A stretch of DNA of 64,000 nucleotides from assembly GCF_056746865.1 (NCBI RefSeq), contig NZ_CM163382.1; one strand, written 5' to 3'. The position numbers and the translations under genes are program-made. Shown piece after piece: positions 35,397 through 37,061 of the stretch (position 1 is the stretch's first letter; each line of letters begins with the position of its first letter). Below the pieces are notes generated by a model that saw only the letters and a list, made by a program, of their open reading frames with translations, was not told the origin of the DNA and did no database searches.

Positions 35397-37061
35397 ATGT
35401 TAAAACGTATCAAAATTGTGACCAGCTTACTGCTGGTTTTGGCCGTTTTTGGCCTTTTACAACTGACATCAGGCGGTCTGTTCTTTAATGCCTTAAAGAA
35501 TGACAAAGAAAATTTCACTGTTTTACAAACCATTCGCCAGCAGCAATCCACGCTGAATGGCAGCTGGGTCGCGTTGTTGCAGACGCGTAACACCCTCAAC
35601 CGCGCGGGTATCCGCTACATGATGGATCAGAATAATATTGGTAGCGGTTCAACCGTTGCTGAGCTGATGCAGAGTGCCAGTATTTCGCTGAAACAGGCGG
35701 AAAAAAACTGGGCGGATTACGAAGCGTTGCCGCGTGACCCGCGTCAGAGCACCGCCGCAGCGGCAGAGATCAAACGTAATTACGATATTTATCACAATGC
35801 GCTGGCGGAGCTGATCCAACTGTTAGGTGCAGGCAAAATCAACGAGTTCTTTGATCAGCCAACCCAGGGATATCAGGACGGTTTCGAGAAGCAGTATGTG
35901 GCTTACATGGAACAAAACGATCGGCTCCATGATATCGCCGTCAGCGATAACAATGCCTCCTACAGCCAGGCGATGTGGATTCTGGTGGGCGTGATGATCG
36001 TCGTACTGGCGGTCATCTTCGCCGTCTGGTTCGGTATTAAAGCCTCGCTGGTAGCGCCAATGAATCGCCTGATTGACAGCATTCGTCATATTGCAGGCGG
36101 CGATCTGGTGAAACCGATTGAGGTGGATGGCTCTAATGAGATGGGGCAACTGGCAGAGAGTTTGCGCCATATGCAGGGAGAGCTGATGCGTACCGTCGGT
36201 GATGTGCGCAACGGGGCCAATGCCATCTATAGCGGTGCCAGCGAAATCGCTACCGGCAATAACGATCTCTCTTCGCGCACCGAGCAACAGGCTGCTTCGC
36301 TGGAAGAGACGGCAGCCAGCATGGAGCAACTGACCGCAACGGTGAAACAGAACGCCGAGAATGCGCGCCAGGCCAGCCACCTGGCGTTAAGTGCTTCTGA
36401 AACGGCGCAACGCGGCGGCAAAGTGGTAGATAACGTGGTGCAGACTATGCGTGATATCTCCACCAGTTCGCAGAAAATCGCCGATATTATCAGCGTAATT
36501 GACGGCATTGCCTTCCAGACCAATATTCTGGCTTTGAACGCGGCGGTTGAAGCAGCGCGTGCGGGTGAGCAAGGACGTGGTTTTGCGGTGGTTGCGGGAG
36601 AAGTGCGTAATCTGGCCCAGCGTAGCGCCCAGGCGGCTCGTGAAATTAAAAGCCTGATTGAAGACTCGGTGGGGAAAGTGGATGTTGGCTCTACGCTGGT
36701 CGAAAGCGCCGGGGAAACAATGGCGGAGATTGTCAGTGCTGTGACCCGCGTGACGGACATTATGGGCGAAATTGCTTCTGCTTCTGATGAGCAGAGCCGT
36801 GGTATCGATCAGGTTGGCTTAGCGGTTGCTGAGATGGACCGGGTAACTCAACAGAACGCCGCGCTGGTGGAAGAATCTGCCGCCGCCGCCGCCGCGCTGG
36901 AAGAGCAGGCCAGTCGCCTGACCGAAGCAGTGGCAGTGTTCCGGATTCAGCAACAGCAGCAACAGCAGCGTGAAACATCGGCTGTGGTAAAAAACGTGAC
37001 GCCAGCTACGCCGCGTAAAATGGCAGTGGCAGATAGCGGGGAGAACTGGGAAACGTTTTAA
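35397..37061 (+). CDS. tsr: Tsr, serine methyl-accepting chemotaxis protein (MCP I)
   Basis: 554 aa; HAMP and highly conserved MCP signalling domain; C-terminal NWETF pentapeptide; 7-Gln run from a CAG/CAA repeat near the C-terminus. Confidence 0.92.

Follow-up and report, generated by a model that had tools for sequence, protein, structure and literature searches.

The 64-kb stretch of DNA analyzed here (the window) carries on its plus strand, at 35397..37061, a coding sequence of 554 codons plus a stop for the serine chemoreceptor Tsr, also designated methyl-accepting chemotaxis protein I. The gene was delimited from the list of open reading frames, and its product matches the NCBIfam Tsr equivalog model (NF011615/PRK15041) over positions 1–554 of the 554-position profile with a score of 1221.9 bits (cut-off 947); the models of the paralogues Tar (749 bits) and Tap (526 bits) each remain under their own cut-offs. 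At the DNA level the gene matches the annotated tsr of Escherichia coli 118UI (WP_000919543.1) with 100% identity, and it has the same neighbors, hpaR and lgoT, as in that strain, an arrangement encountered in 5385 genomes that contain at least 80% of tsr, annotated as such and flanked by these two genes. Given the PRK15041 score and the complete identity to the 118UI gene, the window gene is E. coli tsr, which confirms the name assigned to it in a preliminary description made from the sequence alone; serine sensing and signaling through CheA and CheW are predicted for its product from orthology.

Codons 518–524 of the gene (36948..36968, plus strand, codon phase 0) encode a run of seven glutamines, hereafter allele Q7, that directly follows the residues ...AVAVFRI. 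The underlying 21-nt string, CAGCAACAGCAGCAACAGCAG, is found by exact matching at a single place in the 64-kb window, at these positions on the plus strand and in frame 0 of the 35397..37061 reading frame, and it was recovered in 0 of 100 shuffles even with two mismatches allowed. The preliminary description had given the string correctly but had placed it at 36949–36969, one base to the right of its true position. Among all open reading frames of at least 100 amino acids in the six frames of the window, homopolymer runs of at least five residues occur just twice, as the A6 run at 36879 and the Q7 run at 36948, both times in tsr.

The glutamine run is located, as had been proposed, in the linker before the NWETF pentapeptide, at the start of a poorly conserved C-terminal tether of 33 residues, I517–E549 (36945..37043, plus strand), that leads from the last helix of the cytoplasmic bundle (...AVAVFR) to the pentapeptide at the C-terminus of the protein (37044..37058, plus strand). 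The start at I517 follows the published assignment (PMC10561060), the low residue conservation of the segment and an AF2 pLDDT below 50 for residues 522–554 fit a tether, and the pentapeptide was located from the sequence and its translation, with its role taken from the literature (PMC7390727, PMC8609364). NWETF binds CheR with an affinity of about 2 uM and also CheB in its open, phosphorylated form; the tether, described as unstructured and about 30–35 residues long, raises the local concentration of these enzymes, and removal of the pentapeptide cripples adaptation (PMC7390727, PMC8609364, PMC10561060). The NWETF end of the window protein conforms to the xZxxZ pattern that defines the Tar/Tsr-type tethered receptors (PMC7390727), and the segment that precedes it, with 33 residues, a mean conservation of 0.55 and disorder predicted by AF2, would correspond to the unstructured linker.

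The tract that encodes the glutamines had been described as a CAG/CAA trinucleotide repeat, a reading that did not hold. The TRF program detects, at 36948..36969 on the plus strand, a perfect tandem repeat with a period of 9 bp, comprising 2.4 copies of CAGCAACAG with 100% matches and a score of 44, whereas the period 3 reading of the same tract yields merely 78% matches and a score of 30. Alignment of E. coli strains identifies the same 9-bp unit as the variable element: all alleles have the structure (CAGCAACAG)n + CAG, with n = 1, 2, 3 or 4 corresponding to Q4, Q7, Q10 and Q13, to tethers of 30, 33, 36 and 39 residues and to proteins of 551, 554, 557 and 560 amino acids, respectively. In about 240 listed genome rows, a sample that is still compatible with the existence of rare 3-nt variants, all span differences are multiples of 9 nt, and no steps of 3 or 6 nt were found. 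A trinucleotide (CAG) repeat with single-codon instability is accordingly rejected, as the variants step by 9 nt and the period of 3 is imperfect. The tract resembles CAA-interrupted CAG tracts in its mixture of CAG and CAA codons and in that single-codon variants are unseen in tsr. The closer likeness is to short coding VNTRs, with which it has in common perfect direct repeats, gains and losses of whole units in frame and the reappearance of such changes on related backgrounds. The perfect head-to-tail copies (2.4 in the window), the whole-unit differences between strains and the recurrent changes, to which recombination may have contributed, all fit this class. From typical coding VNTRs it differs by a very low copy number (1–4) and by an apparently slow rate of change.

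The four alleles were each established by alignment and translation in several strains. A single unit plus CAG (Q4) is present in K-12 (MG1655), BL21 and UTI89 or UTI89-like genomes; two units (Q7) in the window, O157:H7, IAI1, ST131, Nissle and ST167; three units (Q10) in HS, LF82/NRG857C and 94-3024; and four units (Q13) in RM14723 and Z1323HEC0355. The length of 551 amino acids that the preliminary description had given for K-12 proved correct (the MG1655 gene has 1656 nt and encodes 551 residues with QQQQ at the site), and so did the statement that the window allele is three codons longer, the difference in the alignment being 9 nt. K-12 Tsr (WP_000919536.1, present as a full-length chain in PDB 6S1K) is the product of the same gene at the same locus and ends in the same NWETF; the two genes have 98.5% DNA identity outside the repeat, and the two tethers differ, apart from the repeat, by three substitutions. 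The distinction is one 9-bp unit, Q4 and a tether of 30 residues in K-12 as opposed to two units, Q7 and 33 residues in the window. Compared with the 554-residue Tsr of most E. coli, the window gene has no material differences: its DNA is that of 118UI, and its product differs from WP_000919571.1 (O157:H7, IAI1) by two residues, with the same Q7 run and the same length. Hence the number of repeat units is polymorphic across E. coli, as had been suspected, and a uniform run of seven glutamines in every tsr allele, the finding that was to have refuted the suspicion, is contradicted by K-12 itself.

To the extent that identity bands can stand in for genome-by-genome allele calls, the frequencies of the alleles were estimated indirectly in 5426 complete genomes of E. 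coli from RefSeq, a collection with considerable redundancy from laboratory derivatives of K-12 and BL21 and from outbreak clones. A 111-nt Q7 query, consisting of the repeat and 45-nt flanks, matched 5342 genomes; 4059 of these (~76%) matched at 95% identity or more, which was taken as equal length, and 1283 matched below this value, which was taken as a gapped alignment. A 99-nt Q13 query with 30-nt flanks, applied with a strict E-value limit, matched 71 genomes, three of them at 99% identity or more (Q13) and 68 with a gap of one unit (Q10, ~1.3%). By subtraction, Q4 accounts for about 1212 genomes (~23%), and a Q4 query agrees with this number to within three genomes. In 43 genomes that contain at least 80% of tsr there is no match to the 111-nt C-terminal region. 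A dedicated query of the E. coli genomes for an allele with zero units (Q1) found none, and the C-terminus IQQAQQRQHE of a sister lineage (see below) was not found in RefSeq E. coli either. Where a strain is represented by more than one record, the records agree (HS, four records with Q10; strain 8178, three records with Q10; the K-12 derivatives, all Q4). An assembly artefact was considered and rejected, since thousands of finished genomes, as well as repeat assemblies of the same strains, contain these alleles. Q7 is by far the commonest allele of E. coli and K-12 has a shorter, minority version. A search of a limited literature collection found no earlier description of a glutamine-repeat polymorphism or allelic series in E. 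coli tsr, and the repeat is not known as a typing locus.

The length of the tether was compared in a set of 80 Tsr orthologues of Enterobacteriaceae, obtained by using the Tsr sensor domain to scan a collection with one genome per species, the tether being taken as the residues between VFR and the pentapeptide. The most frequent protein length is 554 amino acids (49 of 80) and the most frequent tether length 33 residues (also 49 of 80); 72 orthologues have tethers of 32–34 residues and 79 fall within 30–36, with one of 48, so that the 30-residue tether of K-12 lies at the short edge of the range. None of the 80 has a glutamine run longer than three, the usual motif at this place being IQQEQQRAR(D/E). 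Two sister Escherichia lineages, with 88–89% DNA identity, have IQQ(T/A)QQRQHE, proteins of 554 amino acids and 33-residue tethers, and the Q7 form of E. coli aligns to the orthologues, these lineages included, free of gaps. The NCBIfam Tsr profile has the same length as the Q7 protein. Of two structural entries, PDB 3ZX6 has the Q7 tail and PDB 6S1K the K-12 Q4 tail. Over 81 sequences the mean fraction of the majority residue is 0.55 in the tether, compared with 0.97 in the bundle and 0.99 in the pentapeptide, in which W551, E552 and F554 are invariant and N550 and T553 at least 90% conserved; I517, Q518 and Q519 are better conserved than the remainder of the tether. Conservation within the protein is lowest in the tether, whose length is nonetheless maintained, as would be expected of a spacer.

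These comparisons bear on the earlier assertion that the repeat of the window strain has expanded by three codons, which presupposes that K-12 is the baseline. This is not supported, as Q7 is the allele of ~76% of the 5342 matched genomes and has the 33-residue tether typical of the family. Nothing has expanded in the window strain itself, whose allele is shared with thousands of genomes. The glutamine run of the window amounts to an ordinary polymorphism in the length of a flexible linker, and its allele is already represented in RefSeq, in the NCBI family model and in PDB 3ZX6.

The history of the alleles was explored with an NJ tree of 23 E. coli tsr genes that represent all four alleles, computed with the repeat removed. 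The alleles are interspersed on this tree, in several cases on nearly identical backgrounds: mip270 (Q4), AR0128 (Q7) and HS/KSC64 (Q10) are 2–6 nt apart in 1644, a UTI89-like gene (Q4) and that of PK8261 (Q7) differ by 3 nt outside the repeat, and those of Es_ST80 (Q10) and RM14723 (Q13) by 5 nt. Parsimony requires at least 9–10 changes of copy number on the 23 taxa, part of which recombination inside tsr could mimic. Because different alleles are interspersed on near-identical backgrounds, we conclude that the number of repeat units has undergone repeated changes.

Which way the changes went is less clear-cut, as parsimony fails to separate a Q4 root from a Q7 root: with ordered states both require 10 steps, and with unordered states Q4 requires 9 and Q7 10, which slightly favors Q4. 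One could accordingly propose that the tsr of this strain gained three glutamine codons from a K-12-like Q4 ancestor and that the longer tether is an adaptive retuning of adaptational assistance. The 9 nt by which the window exceeds K-12 at the site, the compatibility of the 23-gene parsimony with a Q4 root, the identity of the two 9-nt units even at synonymous positions, as a duplication would leave, and the measurable effect of tether length on CheR kinetics in Tar constructs (PMC10561060) all agree with such a proposal. Nevertheless, we consider it quite unlikely, given that Q7 accounts for ~76% of genomes and is present in all lineages sampled, that 33 residues is the modal tether length of the 80 orthologues and the length in both sister Escherichia lineages, that the window protein is common to many strains in identical or near-identical form, and that the effect predicted for three residues is small. 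The sequence of the tract points the same way: the direct repeat available for misalignment is 13 nt long in Q7 and 4 nt (CAGC) in Q4, which suggests that slippage would start less readily from the shorter allele. The conserved length of 33 residues, the 76% frequency across lineages and the 13-nt versus 4-nt direct repeats together make us lean towards Q7 as the ancestral length, with the Q4 alleles being deletions of one unit. A more involved history, in which a tether of 33 residues was shortened to 30 and restored to 33 by duplication, is possible, as an alignment of the Q4 DNA to the sister motif IQQ(A/T)QQRQHE takes few substitutions besides two small gaps.

Two other regions served for comparison. 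A 156-nt region of tar that encodes a tether without a tandem repeat has at least 95% identity in 5372 of 5381 genomes, and in 39 of 40 evenly spread rows the alignment extended over the full query and revealed no length variant, the 40th being a partial match. Within tsr, the (GCC)5.7 run that lies 53 nt upstream of the repeat and encodes the A6 run in a helix is invariant in all orthologues. Since neither the tar tether nor the A6 run varies in length, the variation in length is specific to the 9-bp repeat in a tolerant linker and does not reflect a general looseness of chemoreceptor tails.

Based on these results, the glutamine run is likely to be the two-copy allele of an in-frame (CAGCAACAG)n + CAG repeat that is subject to recurrent slippage and acts as a spacer with a modest effect. 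Copy number would change by misalignment of strands between the direct repeats during replication, and such misalignment should be far easier from Q7, with its 13-nt repeat, than from Q4, with the 4-nt CAGC; most Q4 alleles, probably including that of K-12, would therefore be one-unit deletions. The CAA interruptions, in turn, would prevent slippage by single codons. The many changes of copy number on closely related tsr backgrounds may also call to mind a contingency locus, that is, a fast and reversible switch by which the members of a clone would come to differ in chemotactic adaptation. We regard this as extremely improbable for tsr, in which 1–4 copies of a 9-bp unit change always in frame and produce no on/off switching, independent records of one strain (HS, 8178, the K-12 derivatives) agree, and the closest pairs with different alleles are 2–6 substitutions apart, pointing to evolutionary rather than culture time scales. 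Contingency or phase-variable loci, which switch fast by frameshift or promoter spacing, are a class to which the repeat, with all its changes in frame, would not belong.

The spacer role assigned to the run in the slippage model can be put in quantitative terms with the aid of work on Tar, in which tether constructs of 22, 29, 34 and 46 residues shifted the peak of the CheR distribution by 0.128 +/- 0.048 nm per residue (PMC10561060). The likeness between the Tar series and the tsr alleles resides in a disordered C-terminal leash that ends in NWETF and concentrates CheR near the methylation sites, with a distribution that is shifted linearly by length in Tar (PMC10561060); the Tar series, however, consists of laboratory constructs with steps of 5–12 residues, whereas the Tsr series is natural and has steps of three glutamines. 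Because the Tar series reveals a dependence on length (PMC10561060), tuning of adaptation by tether length in Tsr, which the preliminary description had put forward, is plausible in kind, by analogy. Values of x0 for the Tsr alleles were calculated with the equation of that study (PMC10561060) and the published distances of the Tsr sites. The results, which extrapolate from Tar-derived parameters and assume a flexible glutamine run, are 9.84 nm for Q4, 10.22 for Q7, 10.61 for Q10 and 10.99 for Q13, and the density of CheR at the receptor's own sites in Q7 relative to Q4 would be 0.66–0.85 if normalized and 0.76–0.98 if not. Truncations of the Tar linker were reportedly made earlier by Li and Hazelbauer in 2006. 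In the tethered-particle model, three additional glutamines would lengthen the CheR leash by ~0.4 nm out of ~10 nm and lower the density of CheR at the methylation sites of the same receptor by ~15–35%; the effect of three glutamines is thus predicted to be modest and probably nearly neutral.

The calculation treats the run as flexible, and it is conceivable that the glutamines instead extend the last helix of the bundle, in which case additional copies would move the anchor of the tether rigidly, by ~0.45 nm per three residues, and change its angular register. The AF2 model, built on an 81-sequence alignment, places a helix at 394–523 that takes in six of the seven glutamines; I517, Q518 and Q519 are, as noted, better conserved than the rest of the tether, and poly-glutamine that follows a helix can be helical (PMC6497633). 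The same model is mediocre (mean pLDDT 66, pTM 0.35), its pLDDT drops from ~54 to ~42 at this place and is below 50 for residues 522–554, and secondary structure is absent over 524–554; the literature (PMC7390727, PMC10561060) lets the tether start at I517 and treats it as unstructured, based on EPR on Tar. A helical run has in our estimation a minor yet appreciable chance of being the correct description, and the change in length would be similarly small either way. 

A flexible spacer of variable length, as we prefer to view the run, carries little weight for biology at large, since the allele is common and the receptor has been studied very thoroughly. Its relevance lies mainly in the standing of K-12, the basis of nearly all quantitative work on chemotaxis, which turns out to have a minority tether that is also the shortest of the natural series. 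The K-12 tether is listed in the literature as IQQQQRETS...EE-NWETF, with 30 residues, and the Tsr tether (30) is described on this basis as shorter than that of Tar (34) (PMC10561060), an argument that fits K-12 and not most E. coli, in which the Tsr tether has 33 residues. A more ambitious proposition is that Q4, Q7, Q10 and Q13 constitute a natural tuning knob, with recurrent 9-nt changes adjusting the reach of tethered CheR and phosphorylated CheB. We give it only a slim chance of being right; if it were, the speed or precision of adaptation, or the cross-methylation between Tsr and Tar, would be adjusted between lineages, most lineages would owe their 33 residues, the length typical of the family, to selection, K-12 standing at the short end of the series, and the quantitative chemotaxis parameters of K-12 would not be those of a typical E. 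coli. Whatever the weight given to that proposition, the tsr alleles offer a natural and otherwise nearly isogenic length series of 30, 33, 36 and 39 residues with which the tethered-enzyme model of adaptation could be put to the test in Tsr.

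Besides the glutamine-encoding repeat, the window holds tandem repeats of several kinds. Upstream of the Gln run by 53 nt, and likewise within tsr, lies a perfect trinucleotide repeat, (GCC)5.7 (window 36879..36895), which encodes six consecutive alanines (A6, Tsr residues 495-500) within the last bundle helix. In contrast to the Gln repeat, it displays no length change among 80 orthologues. Outside tsr, a 121-bp x 2.7 array reported by Tandem Repeats Finder corresponds to three tandem tRNA-Leu(CAG) genes on the minus strand (49830..50152). Three further long-repeat arrays, of 101 bp x 5.1 with 97% matches (58117..58629), 111 bp x 2.3 (50273..50524) and 52 bp x 2 (28761..28875), are composed of units that, from their sequence, look like palindromic elements of the REP/BIME type (GCCGGATAAGGCG...).

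Among the 5426 complete RefSeq E. coli genomes, at least 80% of tsr is present in 5385, and the 111-nt C-terminal region is matched in only 5342. In the approximately 43 genomes that possess the body of the gene and lack this match, the 3' end may be truncated or otherwise different; a C-terminal tail of the sister Escherichia lineage type, IQQAQQRQHE, was not found among them. In E. coli E110019, tsr (a Q4 allele; L095 145..1800) carries a pseudogene annotation that names an internal stop, and lgoT at the same locus is listed as frameshifted. Elsewhere in the compared set, cheW-tar-tap, the chromosomal chemotaxis operon, is found on a record of 438,722 bp labelled 'plasmid pNJS001-2' (L105, NZ_CP114132.1), which may be either a piece of the chromosome or a chimeric replicon of very large size.

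Downstream of tsr in the window, and convergent with it, is lgoT, which encodes an MFS transporter (37110..38471, minus strand). Codon 279 of this gene is an in-frame TAG stop (37635..37637, minus strand), versus TGG (Trp279) in the K-12-like, ST131, IAI1 and ST167 genes, and the window copy is a nonsense pseudogene. An 'internal stop' is likewise annotated in the lgoT gene of 118UI, a strain with exactly the same tsr as the window.

The upstream neighbor in the window is hpaR, the homoprotocatechuate (hpa) regulator gene (34778..35278), which is also found immediately 5' of tsr in HS, IAI1 and 118UI; in K-12 MG1655, no hpaR lies within 300 nt of tsr. On the other side, across the interval that corresponds to window positions 37062..37110, the neighbor of tsr depends on the E. 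coli strain (loci L003, L004, L087, L089, L096, L097 and L101-L103 of the compared genomes). The position directly 3' of tsr is occupied by lgoT in six cases (the window, K-12, HS, ST131, IAI1 and O157) and by a TRAP transporter large permease gene in UTI89, NRG857C, PK8261, SH19PTE6, RM14723 and others. Since the next gene thus differs between strains, the 3' end of tsr adjoins a strain-variable junction.
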